IMG/VR virus record: IMGVR_UViG_3300020570_000507
Span: 1 to 28,613 of that record
Strand: one strand, 5' to 3'
Length of the DNA stretch: 28,613 nt
Source: a virus
Taxonomy: Duplodnaviria; Caudoviricetes
The stretch's first letter is position 1, and every line of letters begins with the position of its first letter. Under the pieces are notes generated by a model, which saw only the letters and a program-made list of their open reading frames with translations, was not told the origin of the DNA and searched no databases. Positions 7,549 to 23,813 of the stretch are shown here, one piece after another. A program made the translations under genes and the position numbers.

Positions 7549-8388
7549 TCAAATTAATGTTAAATCTATACCGTGAGTGTCATACCACCATTCTGCGGTT
7601 TTATCCGGGTGCTTATCTTTAATTTTTAAATACCTTGAAATTATTTTACTCTGCCGTTCAATTTCATCAGTAAAAAATTTATGATCAATGGTTTCTCCAC
7701 TTTTATGGAGCTGGCGTAGTAATTTACGCAAAATATATTCTTGTTTTCGATTTCCAGGAGTATAACCAGCTTCTATTATTTTATAAATGGCTCCCTTTAG
7801 AGTTTCTGTTGCGCTTTTCACTGGATTGCCTAGAATACTTTCAATTCTCTCCAAACCAAACCCAACATCAATAAATTGACCAGAAGTATTAACGATGTTA
7901 CCAATCTCAATTCCATTTTTATAAAATTCAGTGCAATAACCTCCAAGATCACCATCACTCCATACACATTCTGAATCGTATCTAATTTCTAGGTCAGGAT
8001 AATCTGAATAAAAACATTTCCAAGAATCATATTTATCTGGATGTATAGTCACATAATCAATTGAAATATCTAATATGTCATTAAAAAATCCCATCCAAAA
8101 ATGGATAGTTTGCTGCATGGTCATTTCACCAAAAGAAAAAAGACCCAACATATTAAAATATAATAAGTGAGAGCCATCTCCAATTTCAACTAAATCTTGT
8201 AGGCGAATGCAAGATTGACTATTAGCGACAGTGGTATTGTCTGGATTTTTAAACTTGTTTTTAAACTGCTGCATTCCTGCTGGACAAAATAACGTAGTCT
8301 CATCATAAGACTTTACATTATCATCTACCTTAAAGAAAATATTATTACTTTCACAATAACTTTTATAGAGTTCAATTACTTTGTTCAT
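7549..8388 (-). CDS. alaS: minimal alanyl-tRNA synthetase (catalytic domain only)
   Basis: TLFCPAGMQQFK, SQSCIR..D..EIGDGSHLLYFNMLGLFSFG, EIGNIV, IDVGFGLERI, YILRKLLR; 279 aa, no editing or C-Ala domain. Confidence 0.88.
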   Translation of the reverse strand: MNKVIELYKSYCESNNIFFKVDDNVKSYDETTLFCPAGMQQFKNKFKNPDNTTVANSQSCIRLQDLVEIGDGSHLLYFNMLGLFSFGEMTMQQTIHFWMGFFNDILDISIDYVTIHPDKYDSWKCFYSDYPDLEIRYDSECVWSDGDLGGYCTEFYKNGIEIGNIVNTSGQFIDVGFGLERIESILGNPVKSATETLKGAIYKIIEAGYTPGNRKQEYILRKLLRQLHKSGETIDHKFFTDEIERQSKIISRYLKIKDKHPDKTAEWWYDTHGIDLTLI

Positions 8389-12068: not shown

Positions 12069-12334
12069 TATGGATTGGTTGGCGGTGGATTTGGTTCTCG
12101 CTTTTCTAAAGTTGGTTCCAAATATTCTTTTTCTATTTTTCGCCGTTTATATAAATCATTAAGAATATCCAAATTTGCCCAATCATAAGTGGTATAGGGG
12201 CCGCCACCCATATACCACCAGAAAAATCTCATAAACTTCCGCTGCGGCCAATAATCTGTGGACCCAAATCCATTAGTCGTTTTAAGTATTCTGTAGTTTT
12301 TTAATTCGTCTTCCATTTCAGTAATAGTGTTCAA
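12068..12334 (-). CDS. hypothetical protein
   Basis: 88-aa coupled ORF. Confidence 0.7.
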   Translation of the reverse strand: MNTITEMEDELKNYRILKTTNGFGSTDYWPQRKFMRFFWWYMGGGPYTTYDWANLDILNDLYKRRKIEKEYLEPTLEKREPNPPPTNP

Positions 12335-13113
12335 TAGGTAAAGTCATTTAAAGACAATTCACATTCTGGCTCCCATTTTTCCACAACAGTCCGAATAATT
12401 GGTTCAGTTGGGCGAAACTTTTCAGGAATATCCAAATCTTCTGGATTTACCAGCCGTCGTTGTCTTCTTACAAAAGTTCCATTGGTAAAAAACTTAGGAA
12501 GATTCTCCCATGGATTTCCTTTTTCTGTTAGCATTCTCTCCATTTCCTGGCAGGTTTTATTCTGTAGAGTCTTATGCGAGAAAAAATGCCGAGCATACAT
12601 TGAAACCGAGTTTTTCTGTGCATCCCGTTGTCTCCATGAGAAGTTCAAATAAACTTGTTCAAGGTCTGGAACATTCCAAACTCTAGCATCAAAGCTAGGA
12701 AAGTAACCTACTTTTTCTGGCAAGAAATCTGGAAGTCTTCCACAAAAATAAGATGATGCAGATCCGGCTAAAATTGATGTGAGTTTTTGAAATTTTCCAC
12801 CAAACCAAAACTCTCGGTTAGAAAAGTTTTCCTTATCCAAATACCAATAGAGAGTGATTTCATCAGACTGACAATAACCTAATTGGGCTTCACTCTTGTC
12901 AACGAGAAACTTTGTTGTTTCAATCATTAGATCGACAAATCTTTCATCAAACGGGCGTTTGAGACCCTTGGTGAAAGAGCTAAAACAATTACCATCAATG
13001 CGGGCCATGAGTGGTAGAAATGGATCTGCTTTCCGGCCAGCTTCAATCTGCTCTTGTGCTTTCAATAAATCACCAAGTTTATCTTTGCTGTATTTGGGTT
13101 CGGTCATTTTCAT
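12331..13113 (-). CDS. Thg1-like protein (tRNA-His guanylyltransferase / 3'-5' polymerase family)
   Basis: ARIDGNCFSSFT, RPFD, GYCQSDEIT, FGGKFQKL, FDAR, WRQRDAQKNS. Confidence 0.92.
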   Translation of the reverse strand: MKMTEPKYSKDKLGDLLKAQEQIEAGRKADPFLPLMARIDGNCFSSFTKGLKRPFDERFVDLMIETTKFLVDKSEAQLGYCQSDEITLYWYLDKENFSNREFWFGGKFQKLTSILAGSASSYFCGRLPDFLPEKVGYFPSFDARVWNVPDLEQVYLNFSWRQRDAQKNSVSMYARHFFSHKTLQNKTCQEMERMLTEKGNPWENLPKFFTNGTFVRRQRRLVNPEDLDIPEKFRPTEPIIRTVVEKWEPECELSLNDFTY

Positions 13114-17778: not shown

Positions 17779-18435
17779 TTAAATTTCACTTACATTTTTT
17801 AATAATCCAATTTTTACCAATTTACCCCTTACAAGTTCAATATTGCGGCTAACATTATTAAAATCTTCGCGAGATTTCTTAACTATCCATGGAGGTGCCT
17901 TTTTTTCAAAATTTGGATTAGAAATTTTTAAAGAAAGGATGGCATATTCCTTCTCGTATTTTTTATACACTTTAACAAGGCGGTTAACACATTCTTCATA
18001 TTTTTCTTCTTGAATTTCTATATGCCAGCTATATTCCGGCGCGGTTTTCCCTAATGCCGAGTATTCAGGTAAAGTGTAAACGAATACCTCGCTTATCGTT
18101 GGTCCTAAAAGTTCGTGATATGTTTTAATTTTATTTTTACTAAGAGCTGATTTAACGAAAATAAGAATGCCAACTTTATCTTTTCCTGGGTTAAGACCTG
18201 AAAATATCCAAACTAAATACATTTTTTCAGAATCATCCTCGGGCCTAAGCTCAAAATCATATAGACCACTTTTAATAATTGGCTTTGAAAACCAACACCA
18301 TTTTTTGTTCATTCGTTTAGCTACTTCTTCACCATAGACGCATTCGTAAAATTCGGGATCGTCTTCGGAAATCACATACCCTAACCCATTCGCCCAATCT
18401 GGAGCGGTATCCCAAGATGGTTTTTCTATTTTCAT
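17779..18435 (-). CDS. hypothetical protein bracketed by direct repeats
   Basis: Likely start MKIEKPSW at 18435; the ATG at 18462 lies only 2 nt from the -10 box. Confidence 0.7.
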   Translation of the reverse strand: MKIEKPSWDTAPDWANGLGYVISEDDPEFYECVYGEEVAKRMNKKWCWFSKPIIKSGLYDFELRPEDDSEKMYLVWIFSGLNPGKDKVGILIFVKSALSKNKIKTYHELLGPTISEVFVYTLPEYSALGKTAPEYSWHIEIQEEKYEECVNRLVKVYKKYEKEYAILSLKISNPNFEKKAPPWIVKKSREDFNNVSRNIELVRGKLVKIGLLKNVSEI

Positions 18436-18466
18436 TCCTCTAACCCCCACATTATTCTTCATACAG

Positions 18467-19412: not shown

Positions 19413-20000
19413 TCATAGAGTAAACCGAACAAATTTAGAAACTCTAATATTTTCCTTAAGAGTTCCCGCAACACTCTTTACATATTCTTCAACAGTTAGA
19501 GTATTGTCTTTAACAAAAACCTGACTCATTAGACACATCTCTTTCAGGCGTTTTGCAACTCTACCTTCAACAATTTTAGTCTTAATTGCATCGGGTTTGG
19601 CTGCAAGGTCATTTTTACCCATTTCAATTTGAGCTTCTTTCTCTGAAATTTCACTAGGAATGTCATCAACCGAAACATAAGAAACTGCAGGATATGCTGC
19701 AACCTGCATTCCCAAATTGCGAACAAGCTCTAGAAACTCTTCTGAACGAGCAACAAAATCTGTTTCACAAAGAACTTCAATCAAAACACCAACTTTACCG
19801 CCCGTGTGAATGTAAGAGCCAATAGTTCCTTCAGTTGTTTGTCTACCAGAATTGCCATCTGCAATTGAAATTCCTTTCTGTCTGAGCCAAATAATTGCCC
19901 TAGATTCATCGTCCGAATTGGCGGCTAGGGCCTCTTTACAGAGCATCATTCCGGCTCCAGTCTTTTGCCGAAGTTCTTTAATTTGTTCAATGGTTGCCAT
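19413..20000 (-). CDS. tsf: translation elongation factor Ts (short cyanobacterial type)
   Basis: [72 protein letters not shown]. Confidence 0.96.
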
Positions 20001-20028
20001 TTTCTTATTTTATAATGAAGGTAAAATT

Positions 20029-20185
20029 TGCCCTCGGAGAGATTTGAACTCACTATTGATAGACTTAATGTTTCGTTCAGGAAGATCGCCTTATGAGGGA
20101 GGTTCTTATCGGTGTGGATTCAACACACCTATCCAACACTACTTTATTAAGTTGAATCCTATCTTACCATACCAATGGCAAGGGC
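20029..20185 (-). ncRNA. 157-nt tRNA-like RNA with large structured insert
   Basis: Acceptor GCCCUUG/CGAGGGC plus discriminator A; T arm GUGAG-UUCAAAU-CUCUC; internal helices GAUAG/CUAUC, ACUUAAU/AUUAAGU and GGUGUG/CACACC. Confidence 0.7.
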
Positions 20186-20188
20186 ATT

Positions 20189-20218
20189 GAAAAGTAAGAC
20201 ATTTGGGACTGTCTTACT
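20189..20218 (-). terminator. hairpin plus short U tract (terminator or processing signal)
   Basis: AGUAAGACA-8 nt-UGUCUUACU-UUU. Confidence 0.5.
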
Positions 20219-20441
20219 ATACCGGACCCAGAAGTTCTCTTTCATACTTCTCGGTTTGACATCTTTCTGGGCTATGTGCCCAGCGATTATCAATAGTCGC
20301 CCTGGGGATCAAACCCAGCCTAAGGCCCCAGTCCAGGGCAAATCGCTTATAAGGCGACTCCGAACATCAGTTCTGACGACCGAGCGGATGAAAGGAAGTT
20401 TTTGGGTAGGCGAACCTACCTTTTCTACTTTCCCGGTATAG
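20217..20441 (-). ncRNA. about 225-nt multi-stem RNA (possibly manA RNA motif) enclosing a tRNA
   Basis: Closing helix CUAUACCGG/CCGGUAUAG; GGUAGG-UUCG-CCUACC, CUGGGC/GCCCAG and AGAAGU/ACUUCU stems. CAUCCGC, GAUGUC and GUAUGAAAG recall cyanophage manA RNAs (from memory, unverified). Confidence 0.55.
20294..20381 (-). tRNA. atypical tRNA-Ile(UAU)
   Basis: Acceptor GGUCGUC/GGCGACU+A; minimal D arm GAAC-UGAU-GUUC; 6-bp anticodon stem with loop CU-UAU-AA; long variable arm; T arm CUGGG-UUUGAUC-CCCAG; no encoded CCA. Confidence 0.78.
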
Positions 20442-20476
20442 AGCCCAGGGGGCCTATTTCCTTTCATTGCCTATGT

Positions 20477-20520
20477 ATCATACACCAAGACTGGGGTTGT
20501 GGGTGGGTTGTGTGCCAGTT
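20477..20520 (-). promoter_or_regulatory. early promoter motif copy driving the RNA cluster
   Basis: AACTGGCACAC-27 nt-TATGAT. Confidence 0.75.
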
Positions 20521-20554
20521 TAAGGGTTGGGTGCTTTTGTCAAGTGGTAGCAGA

Positions 20555-21130
20555 CTACTGTGAAAGTAGCATAGAAGATTTAAGTCTAAGTTCTGCGTGA
20601 ATTTCTCTATGACAATTAGAACATACACAAATACATTTATCCAGTTCACGTTTTTGATTTTCCCAACTCTTATGCTTTATGTTTCCAAAGTTTTTATCCT
20701 TTTCCTTTGGGTTTATATGATGGAATTCTAGAGCATCAACACATTTATTATAATCGCATCTTTCGCATTTTCCACCTTTATACTCTACAGCTTTCTTTTT
20801 AGAATTTCTCCACCTTTCTATAGATTTTTTATTAGAACATTTTTTACAGTTGGGTGCCCATACTCGTCTTCCTTTTCTCCAATAACCAGTTTCAACATTT
20901 AAATCTATATCACAGGAATTACATTTTTGTATTGGGTTACCATTATCTCTTTTTATTGTGTGTTTATTGCCATTGACATAAACCCCTTCTTTAAAAGATT
21001 TATAGTGAGTCTTTAGATTGTGTTGTTTTAACCAATATCTAATTGTGGTATAGCTTTTATTTGTTAATTTTGATATTTGCCTTATTGATAATTTTTGGTC
21101 AATAAATTCTTTTAAAGTAGAATATTCCAT
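20555..21130 (-). CDS. HNH endonuclease with N-terminal HTH (free-standing homing-endonuclease type)
   Basis: SIRQISK..SYTTIRYWL HTH; CxxC..CxxC; KGGKCERC..ALEFHH..ELDKCICVCSNCHREIH. Confidence 0.88.
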   Translation of the reverse strand: MEYSTLKEFIDQKLSIRQISKLTNKSYTTIRYWLKQHNLKTHYKSFKEGVYVNGNKHTIKRDNGNPIQKCNSCDIDLNVETGYWRKGRRVWAPNCKKCSNKKSIERWRNSKKKAVEYKGGKCERCDYNKCVDALEFHHINPKEKDKNFGNIKHKSWENQKRELDKCICVCSNCHREIHAELRLKSSMLLSQ

Positions 21131-21196
21131 TAGTTCAGGTAAAATAACTTATTGTTATTTATACAACTGAACTATTAAACTTTACAAAGTTAAAAA

Positions 21197-21279
21197 CGGG
21201 TCCCGGATGAATTGAACATCGTACCCTCCTTCCAGCGTTTAAGGGACCGCGTTAGAAGCACGGTGCTGGGACGGGACCC
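21197..21279 (-). tRNA. D-armless tRNA-Arg(UCU)-like RNA
   Basis: 8-bp acceptor GGGUCCCG/CGGGACCC+G; 4-bp T stem GAUG-UUCAAUU-CAUC; anticodon arm ACCGUG-CUUCUAA-CGCGGU; only 7 nt where the D arm should be. Confidence 0.7.
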
Positions 21280-21339
21280 ATAATAAAACCCGAAACAAAT
21301 CGGATTGTCTGTCTATTTAGACCCCCTTTGCTTGACCCT

Positions 21340-22430: not shown

Positions 22431-22486
22431 AAAAAGGTCAAAGGGCTCTCATAAAGAGTAGCCCATACATAACTAAGACAATTAAT
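22431..22486. repeat. about 55-bp direct repeat with terminator-like hairpin, copy 1
   Basis: aaaaaggtcaaagggctctc..gcccatacataactaag(a/t)caattaat; other copy at 23826-23880. Confidence 0.9.
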
Positions 22487-23813
22487 CATAACTATTTAAA
22501 TCATTAACTTCTATACCTTTGTTTCTCAAGAGTTCGCGAATATTATCAGCTTTTGCATAATCACGATTAGCTCTAGCGATATTGCGCTCTTCAATCAATG
22601 AGCGAATCTCTTCACTTTTCTCCTTTTCACCGGAAGAAACCTCATAAACAAACCCCAACACCCCTGACAACTCTTGTAAGAGTTTCCAGCTATCATCACA
22701 GCTATTAGTTCTTATTAAACGAGCCAATTGAAATAATTCTCCAACGGCAACTGAAGTATTGAGATCATCATTGAGAGCCGAAATGAACCTATTTCTAATG
22801 TGCTCTAAGTCTGTGCTAAGGCTTAGAGATTCAGTGACTTCACGGTTAATTCCAAATGATAGCGCAGTATTTAAAATCTTCCACCCGTTGACTGCAGATT
22901 TCATTGCTTCCATATTAAAATCTATCGGTTTTCTGTAGTGGGCTTGCAATACAAATAACCTAATGGCCATAGGACTAATGCCAAATTCAATTAGATTTCT
23001 GATCGTGGTGAAATTTCCTAGAGATTTAGCCATCTTTTCCTCGCCAACGGTAACGAAACCATTGTGTAGCCAATAATGGGCTAATTCCTTACCGTTAGCA
23101 ATTTCAGATTGTGCTATTTCATTTTCGTGATGTGGAAAGATTAAATCCGATCCACCCAAATGAATGTCAATAGTTTCACCAAGTTCTTGACGAATCATTG
23201 CGGAGCATTCAATATGCCAGCCCGGTCTTCCCGGCCCCCAAGGAGAATCAAAACTAGGCTCATCAGAATTTACACCTTTCCAAAGAGCAAAATCAAACGG
23301 ATGATGTTTTTTTGTGTCTTCTTGGCTGCGCTGTTGTTCTAACTTGCGACCACTCAGTTTACCATATTCAGCATATTTCATAACTGAAAAATAAACATCT
23401 CCATCTATAGAATATGCAGCACCTTTATCTGTGAGAACTTGAATCATATTGCGAATTGCACCGAGGCTATTCGTCACTCTTGGCATTTTATCGGCAGGAA
23501 GTATGTTCAAGGTCTTCATATCTTCTTCGAAAGCCTGAATATTACGTTCACTAACTGCTTCTATAGAGGTTCCTTCTAATTTAGCTCTTGCTATAATTTT
23601 ATCGTCAATATCAGTAAAATTCTGAACGAACTTAACAACATATCCTTGCCACATTAGATGTCTCCTTAGAACATCCCACACAATATAGCTACGTGCATGT
23701 CCTAAATGACACAGATCATAAACAGTAACACCGCAGCAATAAATTAATACTTTACCAGGAGTTATTGGAATAAACTCTTCTTTAGTTTTAGTGATACTGT
23801 TAGTTAGGTACAT
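22482..23813 (-). CDS. cysS: cysteinyl-tRNA synthetase
   Basis: [17 protein letters not shown] (HIGH), [49 protein letters not shown] (KMSKS). Confidence 0.97.

Follow-up and report, generated by a model that had tools for sequence, protein, structure and literature searches.

An exchangeable phage cassette joining an irregular tRNA-Ile(UAU)-type gene to a cut-down, circularly permuted tRNA mimic

The described systems closest to the locus studied here are RNAs and genes of several kinds. YrlA RNA (RF02553) has been assigned a circularly permuted tRNA order, i.e., T, acceptor-like hairpin and D within a terminal helix (PMC4201824), and GOLLD RNA carries a tRNA within a folded RNA in a phage tRNA region, for which tRNA storage has been proposed (PMC12990946). 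The manA RNA (RF01745; PMC2864571) occurs in cyanophage tRNA clusters and is similar in size to the element described below, and a preprint on manA variants (bioRxiv 10.64898/2026.07.01.735769) leaves tRNA unmentioned in the available part of its main text. Among tRNAs proper, tRNA-Ile(UAU) is known from Mycoplasma mobile (PMC3575796) and phage S-CREM1, and allo-tRNAs (PMC5389517) combine a long variable arm, a D stem with tetraloop and a long anticodon stem, frequently with a UAU anticodon. Finally, the free-standing endonuclease gene segB of T4 lies beside tRNA genes and is matched by an allele without the endonuclease gene (PMC2330249, PMC13096335), and its co-transfer with its tRNA region is a precedent for homing with tRNA genes (PMC2330249).

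Here, the window (i.e., the whole analysed stretch of 28,613 nt, virus record IMGVR_UViG_3300020570_000507, about 14% complete) was examined computationally around a 255-nt element that lies entirely on the minus strand. The genes of the window, which include tsf, cysteinyl-tRNA synthetase, thyX and phoH, are almost all on the minus strand, and a plus-strand ORF at 20175-20441 opposes the direction of all neighbouring genes. Since the nearest named homologues are found in Synechococcus phages, the host of the virus is likely cyanobacterial; among the metagenome runs containing the stretch, 22 of 24 rows are labelled lake or freshwater, and four rows possibly represent the window's own source. 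One RNA run (X23) gave two contigs at a depth of 2–3 over 20230-20386 and 20425-20836, too thin for transcription, strand or ends to be read from them, and in a second (X24) the element was not covered. A literature search, outside which most subscription papers fell, yielded no paper on the mimic family or on the cassette presented here.

The 255 nt proved to be a mosaic of three modules of separate origin, i.e., a 5′ mimic, a tRNA and a trailer, and the following features (all on the minus strand) were distinguished in and around it:

20555..21130, minus strand: free-standing HNH endonuclease gene travelling with the cassette (phrog_2255, E 3.6e-31)
20477..20520, minus strand: putative phage promoter, with its upstream word at 20520 and a –10-like hexamer at 20482-20477
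20388..20467, minus strand: 5′ module, a cut-down circularly permuted tRNA mimic (match to model R1)
20458..20467, minus strand: 5′ strand of the terminal helix P1, pairing with 20397-20388 (family-conserved pairing)
20433..20441, minus strand: 5′ strand of the outer 9-bp helix, overlapping the remnant acceptor-like hairpin (three changes peculiar to the lineage)
20294..20381, minus strand: irregular tRNA-Ile(UAU)-type gene (fold and comparison with close phage copies)
20256..20293, minus strand: likely second, shorter mimic copy (shared 14-letter pattern)
20226..20255, minus strand: tail hairpin of 3 + 6 bp with a 10-nt loop holding the distal word (folding)
20217..20225, minus strand: 3′ strand of the outer 9-bp helix and 3′ end of the cassette (complementarity, allele comparison)
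20190..20218, minus strand: A+U-rich hairpin followed by a short U run, separating the cassette from the next small RNA (common to allele L011)

Our preferred reading, to which we assign a probability of roughly 0.6, is that these parts make up a phage tRNA cassette of separate modules, in which a UAU tRNA is flanked by cut-down mimics and is released in the ordinary way rather than gated by an outer helix.

The nature of the 5′ module emerged from a weak match in phage B3, which led to stand-alone mimics between tRNA genes. Four distinct whole mimics were found, each alone between tRNA genes (in B3/B23, L008, L057 and L058/L060), and laid out as terminal helix, T arm, acceptor-like hairpin, D arm with an inserted hairpin, and terminal helix again, which is the circularly permuted order given for YrlA (PMC4201824). 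A model (R1) built from these four copies without the window matched 20385-20470 at 39.4 bits (E 4.8e-8), the next match in the window reaching 12.6 bits. Across the four sequences, 8 of the 31 mimic pairs change on both sides, as compared with 2.1 in shuffles (0 of 500 as high) and at most 2 in slid controls. Moreover, U8-A14, A15-U48, G18G19 and the T loop are invariant, and all four whole mimics show the permuted order with tRNA tertiary bases; the T stem has five pairs in one copy and three in the other three. The window mimic lacks its T loop of 11 nt and its D loop of 12 nt through deletion, seen as 11 and 12 missing model positions, and keeps the terminal helix, a remnant of the acceptor-like hairpin (20449-20432) and the D-insert hairpin (20420-20405), and so shows which parts persist once the elbow is gone.

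The terminal helix P1 is the only pairing with covariation, and it leaves the tRNA untouched; in four homologues 95% of its cells are paired, with one two-sided and one one-sided change. The original prediction had offered the segment 20397-20388 three partners, and two of the pairings were recovered as described, i.e., 10 pairs with 20467-20458 at the 5′ end and 7 pairs between 20394-20388 and the distal loop (20245-20239). Judged by the homologues, the 5′ end is the conserved one of the three.

Neither the word GNCGAA(N)G, which binds Ro60 near the 5′ end, nor an above-cut-off match to RF02553 was found in the five mimic sequences and their records (26 weak matches, none on a mimic), and no Ro60/TROVE gene was found in the five records or the window, a test that is full only for the complete B3 genome because the other records are 4–16% complete. 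The mimics also differ from YrlA in an extra D-loop hairpin, and the window copy differs further in lacking both elbow loops; by membership, the mimic family is not YrlA. These permuted tRNA mimics of phage tRNA arrays form a family that lacks Ro60 and has so far gone unannotated, and the copy in the cultured Synechococcus phage B3, a whole mimic unannotated between tRNA-Lys and tRNA-Trp (L003:2972-3078, i.e., MN695334 45941-46047; also in phage B23), is open to study. On 34 loci, R1 returned only its four training copies below E 0.2, and on G006 and G007 nothing new; a run on S-CBWM1, S-CRM01, S-CREM1, G008 and G009, which had no positive control, gave no match, and the mimic D-loop word had no match in the genome collection. 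Another permuted tRNA-like element of a different kind, whose terminal helix is long, lies in the array of L008 (L008:358-465); R1 does not find it, and it has no match in the phage collection.

The second module bears out the expectation of a tRNA-Ile-like gene inside the element: the gene is real, has a UAU anticodon, and its cloverleaf is kept by compensatory change. It comprises a 7-bp acceptor with G1-U72 and A73 (CCA not being encoded), a 4-bp D hairpin with tetraloop, a 7-bp anticodon stem, a long variable arm and a 5-bp T stem, and 20381-20294 alone folds as a cloverleaf (–34.8 kcal/mol, acceptor probability 0.79). ARAGORN did not call it and RF00005 gave no match to it at E ≤ 10; at a relaxed threshold, ARAGORN called the close copies tRNA-Ile(tat) in 5 of 5 tested. 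A scan with the anticodon arm returned 29 loci (20 distinct sequences), of which two are identical to the window, seven carry one close sequence, and others include UAU tRNAs with a long variable arm. The close copy differs from the window at 20 positions, none of which breaks a helix and 12 of which make up six compensatory pairs (three in the acceptor, two in the T stem, and G19-C56 to A19-U56), a test that in effect compares one pair of sequences; the window copy thereby documents a compensatory swap of the G19-C56 elbow pair to A-U. The cloverleaf is paired in 168 of 168 cells, which 0 of 500 shuffles reach.

A third sequence with the same arms and UAU is found in the cultured phage S-CBWM1, as an unannotated long-arm UAU tRNA immediately before tRNA-Cys (L084:1497-1583, i.e., MG450654 about 20931-21017). 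Further unannotated, folded-looking sequence precedes that homologue, following an HNH gene that is unrelated to the HNH gene of the window beyond the motif. The seven close copies sit in ordinary tRNA arrays without the flanks of the window, and their likeness to the element is limited to positions 81-210 of 281, i.e., the tRNA and a few bases around it. The variable region reads GAU in 21 of the 29 loci, corresponding to 13 of the 20 distinct sequences, and some of the remainder look like chance or short-arm matches; the window and L042 carry GAC where most relatives have GAU in the variable-arm loop. In these two unrelated copies (window 20339-20325 and L042) the loop has gone from AGAU to GGAC, which, being a change on both sides, may point to a pair across the loop. 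As to decoding, UAU stands in a canonical 7-nt loop, together with A37, A38, A73, C4-G69 and C29-G41; the anticodon loop, A73, C4-G69 and C29-G41 match isoleucine identity elements of E. coli (PMC9976931), the D-loop and U12-23 elements being ones that cannot be mapped on the short D arm.

The trailer opens with 20293-20256, where a short terminal helix encloses a 6-bp acceptor-like hairpin (20283-20267) and the purines that follow it, echoing the 5′ module. A 14-letter pattern matches only this stretch and the 5′ module (0 matches expected). Because that pattern was composed after both had been seen and model R1 does not detect 20293-20256, a second mimic copy is here likely only. The tail hairpin that follows has a probability of 0.91–0.97 when the cloverleaf is enforced.

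The sequence words of the element had also been likened to manA, an identity that we reject. The Rfam model RF01745 (gathering threshold 55.2 bits; positive control S-CREM1 manA, 96.6 bits) gave no match at E ≤ 10, and none of the three conserved words occurs on either strand, as compared with three of three in S-CREM1 manA. When the flanks were compared separately with S-CREM1 manA, sense alignments were at chance level, and one of the six comparisons, that of the 3′ flank in antisense, reached 5/300. In spite of the similar setting and size, the element therefore differs from manA in model match, conserved words and sense alignment alike.

The boundaries of the element became apparent from its alleles. 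The sister allele L011, whose tsf is 97% identical, has the promoter and the downstream hairpin of the window, with tRNA-Lys, tRNA-Gly and tRNA-Met between them, and lacks the HNH gene; moreover, contigs of two runs diverge from the window at 20461 and 20217. Judged by these alleles, the element is shown to be an exchangeable cassette. The promoter stretch common to the window and L011 belongs to a promoter-like motif at six minus-strand sites (21528, 20520, 18508, 17742, 12068 and 7534), in which a fixed 9-nt word precedes a –10-like hexamer by about 30 nt (hexamers identified by eye), and initiation near 20471-20470 would place the element at the very 5′ end of its transcript. Duplicated units lie at 21545-21340.

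In L012, the 21198-20124 region comprising the HNH gene and the cassette differs from the window by one base and one indel, as compared with about 5% in tsf; the sameness of the copies therefore fits a recent sweep or co-transfer and, because it does, does not testify to constraint. Recent spread of the cassette in company with the neighbouring HNH gene is likely. This gene uses AUA for 8 of its 12 isoleucines, versus 56 of 353 in the 27 other ORFs (Fisher p 1.7e-4), a bias that may reflect only foreign origin. T4 SegB targets a GGTTCRA T-loop motif. The HNH-bearing allele (window 20021-21300, minus strand) has no such word and the HNH-less L011 has canonical T loops, for which immunity to self-cutting is, by analogy, a possible explanation.

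Several further features lie on the minus strand of the window. In the next small RNA (20186-20028), the two ends are tRNA-like, with a 7-bp acceptor, a D hairpin bearing a tetraloop and a T arm, and enclose an insert of about 100 nt; its homologues (L067:2058-2215, L011 and L012) show compensatory changes in the D stem and in the stem that closes off the insert. Some words within the insert may resemble a hammerhead ribozyme core; the insert has no Rfam match, and the window copy differs from L067 in this hammerhead-like core. An irregular tRNA-Arg(UCU)-like gene at 21279-21199, with an 8-bp acceptor and a 4-bp T stem that recall allo-tRNAs, has copies about 80% identical in L011 and L012 that score as tRNA-Arg at a relaxed threshold. 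Genes related to translation form a cluster, with a protein with a valyl-tRNA synthetase arm (17779-18462), a partial alanyl-tRNA synthetase (7549-8388), Thg1 (12331-13113), cysteinyl-tRNA synthetase (22482-23813) and EF-Ts (19413-20000).

Release of tRNA by RNase P, 3′ trimming and CCA addition is general bacterial tRNA processing. On the reading of ordinary release, transcription would start near 20470 from the repeated promoter-like motif, and the conserved helix P1 of the 5′ module would close at once. The cloverleaf would then fold behind this module with its leader single-stranded, host RNase P would cleave before G20381, and a 3′ nuclease and CCA addition would complete a tRNA expected to read AUA. 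The flanks would serve as folded spacers, preventing leader and trailer from invading the tRNA, the outer 9-bp helix might form in the precursor without using tRNA bases, and the cassette would have spread with the HNH gene.

The competing pairings of the original prediction are real, like the tRNA, and the folding models place the alternatives within 3–6 kcal/mol of one another. The region folds with z = –3.4 (1 of 200 shuffles equally stable), and the free fold (–97.2 kcal/mol) is a rod with a broken acceptor, followed by the cloverleaf with outer helix (–94.1 kcal/mol) and the cloverleaf with P1 (–91.1 kcal/mol). Specifically, the lowest-energy fold of 20471-20214 lies 3.1 kcal/mol below the best cloverleaf fold; in it, three colinear blocks of 9, 10 (with a bulge) and 6 pairs join 20255-20217 to the 5′ side, 20226-20255 taking 20397-20379 as its partner and the last block the first three bases of the tRNA, and 4 of 200 tail-shuffled elements fold equally well. 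Among ten growing transcripts, P1 is in the best fold of the seven shorter ones and is displaced in the last three, and, of the seven that contain the complete tRNA, only two have the cloverleaf as their best fold; the cloverleaf is lower in energy in 7 of 8 fragments. With the cloverleaf enforced, P1 has a probability of 0.08–0.76 and the outer helix one of 0.89–0.17, depending on the chosen 3′ end. A 9-bp helix inside the tRNA competes with the cloverleaf as well, but is not an unusual feature, an equally long one arising in 458 of 1000 random compensatory redraws.

Several observations count against ordinary release, the small share of growing transcripts with the cloverleaf as best fold among them. 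In the unconstrained full element, the modelled acceptor stem has a probability of at most 0.01 in 9 of 9 settings, which weighs the more given 0.96–0.97 for the close copies in L043 and L048 in their own context. This is mitigated by the commonness both of the internal helix and of misfolded acceptors in the models of ordinary tRNAs (probability below 0.1 in 21 of 98 array tRNAs with the full 7-pair register, or 26 of 105 when seven incomplete-register rows are included). The loss of the variable-loop GAU likewise speaks against ordinary release, as does an outer helix that is above chance together with three lineage changes that all favour the helix.

The outer helix suggests another reading, which we consider unlikely, i.e., that the flanks have been rewired in this lineage into one composite RNA whose tail clamps the mimic, the captured tRNA being the tRNA-shaped domain of the loop-less mimic or stored cargo as proposed for GOLLD. 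The helix was predicted correctly: 20441-20433 is perfectly complementary to 20225-20217 (nine Watson-Crick pairs), compatible with the cloverleaf and free of tRNA bases. Compared with L008 and B3, the strand 20441-20433 carries three lineage-specific changes, each of which yields a Watson-Crick pair with the tail and two of which break acceptor-like pairs of the family; the same tail match could equally be expected from inverted duplication without selection. The T-loop deletion makes a small hairpin (20454-20442) that frees the outer-helix strand, and the final base of the helix is also where the cassette stops. With the 39-nt tail shuffled (a segment selected after the helix had been seen), a 9-bp helix to the 5′ domain recurred 11 times in 2000; shuffling the whole 77-nt 3′ part gave 39 such cases in 2000, and shuffling the whole element 6 in 300. 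Among 105 ordinary array tRNAs, one has such a helix between equal-sized flanks. The outer helix is above chance, modestly (0.6–2%). Tail shuffles matched its duplex energy in 35 of 2000 cases and shuffles of the whole 3′ part in 1163 of 2000; by this measure the whole 3′ part is not special. Likewise, its probability is 0.75–0.99 in six of nine folds, but 0.02–0.45 in the three that include downstream RNA, where P1 returns (0.54–0.92).

No covariation of the outer helix was seen, every full-length copy found being identical or differing at the unpaired base 20457. Viral scans with tail, 5′ and mixed patterns returned no diverged full-length copy, only two identical records and one homologue of the 5′ module, and a metagenome scan returned five stretches, namely the window's own record, the L008 contig and three matches by chance within a single coding sequence. 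Of 16 loci obtained with the second-hairpin pattern, 14 resembled the element no further, and in regions upstream of nine tsf loci at greater distance (L013-L021) a single 19-nt word was all that matched. Judged by its own refuting condition, the original prediction is largely undercut: the outer helices were not found conserved, the tRNA type occurs without the flanks, the 5′ domain occurs alone, and the sister allele has three ordinary tRNAs instead. What had been proposed as a gated, manA-like RNA shrinks to a lineage-specific cassette.

A bolder form of the same thought, to which we give somewhat less credence, is that of a newborn composite RNA, in which the mimic has shed its elbow loops and captured the irregular tRNA, the tail clamps the whole and is able to mask the 5′ end of the tRNA, and the precursor fold controls release of the AUA-reading tRNA.

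Lower again we place the reading in which the flanks are decaying small-RNA debris and the tRNA is an intact but uncharged or mischarged decoy, the cassette persisting only because it hitchhikes with the HNH gene. The mimic has indeed lost both elbow loops and its acceptor-like hairpin is weakened, the variable loop has GAC, and L012 carries the signature of a sweep; moreover, UAU tRNA is charged poorly by E. coli IleRS (PMC3575796) and none of six amber variants of allo-tRNA(UAU) was functional in an E. coli reporter (PMC5389517). Yet the terminal helix, D-insert hairpin and second hairpin are all still fully paired, the tRNA shows six compensatory changes and matches the E. coli isoleucine identity elements noted above (PMC9976931), and GAC recurs in the unrelated copy L042.

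Least probable among the alternatives is a switch gating tRNA release, in which the finished tail would strip P1 and pair with 20397-20379 and the first three bases of the tRNA while the variable arm takes the 3′ acceptor strand and hides the RNase P site: the rod described above is its mainstay, but nearest-neighbour energies leave out tRNA tertiary contacts, misfolded acceptors are common in control tRNAs, the cloverleaf is kept by compensatory change and favoured in most fragments, the outer helix shows no covariation, and no input (ligand, ribosome or protein) was identified.

Returning to the modular cassette with ordinary release, its parts can be set beside the systems named at the outset. 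Compared with GOLLD and ROOL, the element is only 255 nt long, has no Rfam match and lacks a conserved outer structure; a functional outer clamp, should it prove to be one, would illustrate how array parts can be assembled into tRNA-containing RNAs such as GOLLD. The arrangement of endonuclease gene, tRNA region and allele without the endonuclease gene is that of T4 segB, with the difference that the enzyme is HNH here and GIY-YIG in T4 (PMC2330249, PMC13096335). The tRNA of the cassette has the UAU anticodon loop, G1-U72, A73 and T stem of the S-CREM1 gene; from the known tRNA-Ile(UAU) of Mycoplasma mobile and S-CREM1 it differs in its long variable arm, D tetraloop hairpin, 7-bp anticodon stem and A19-U56 for G19-C56. 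With allo-tRNAs (PMC5389517) it shares the long arm and stems, but has a 7/5 acceptor/T branch rather than 8/4 or 9/3, and A73 rather than G73 or U73. The known kinds behind the cassette are mimics of YrlA order in phage tRNA arrays and long-arm UAU tRNAs.
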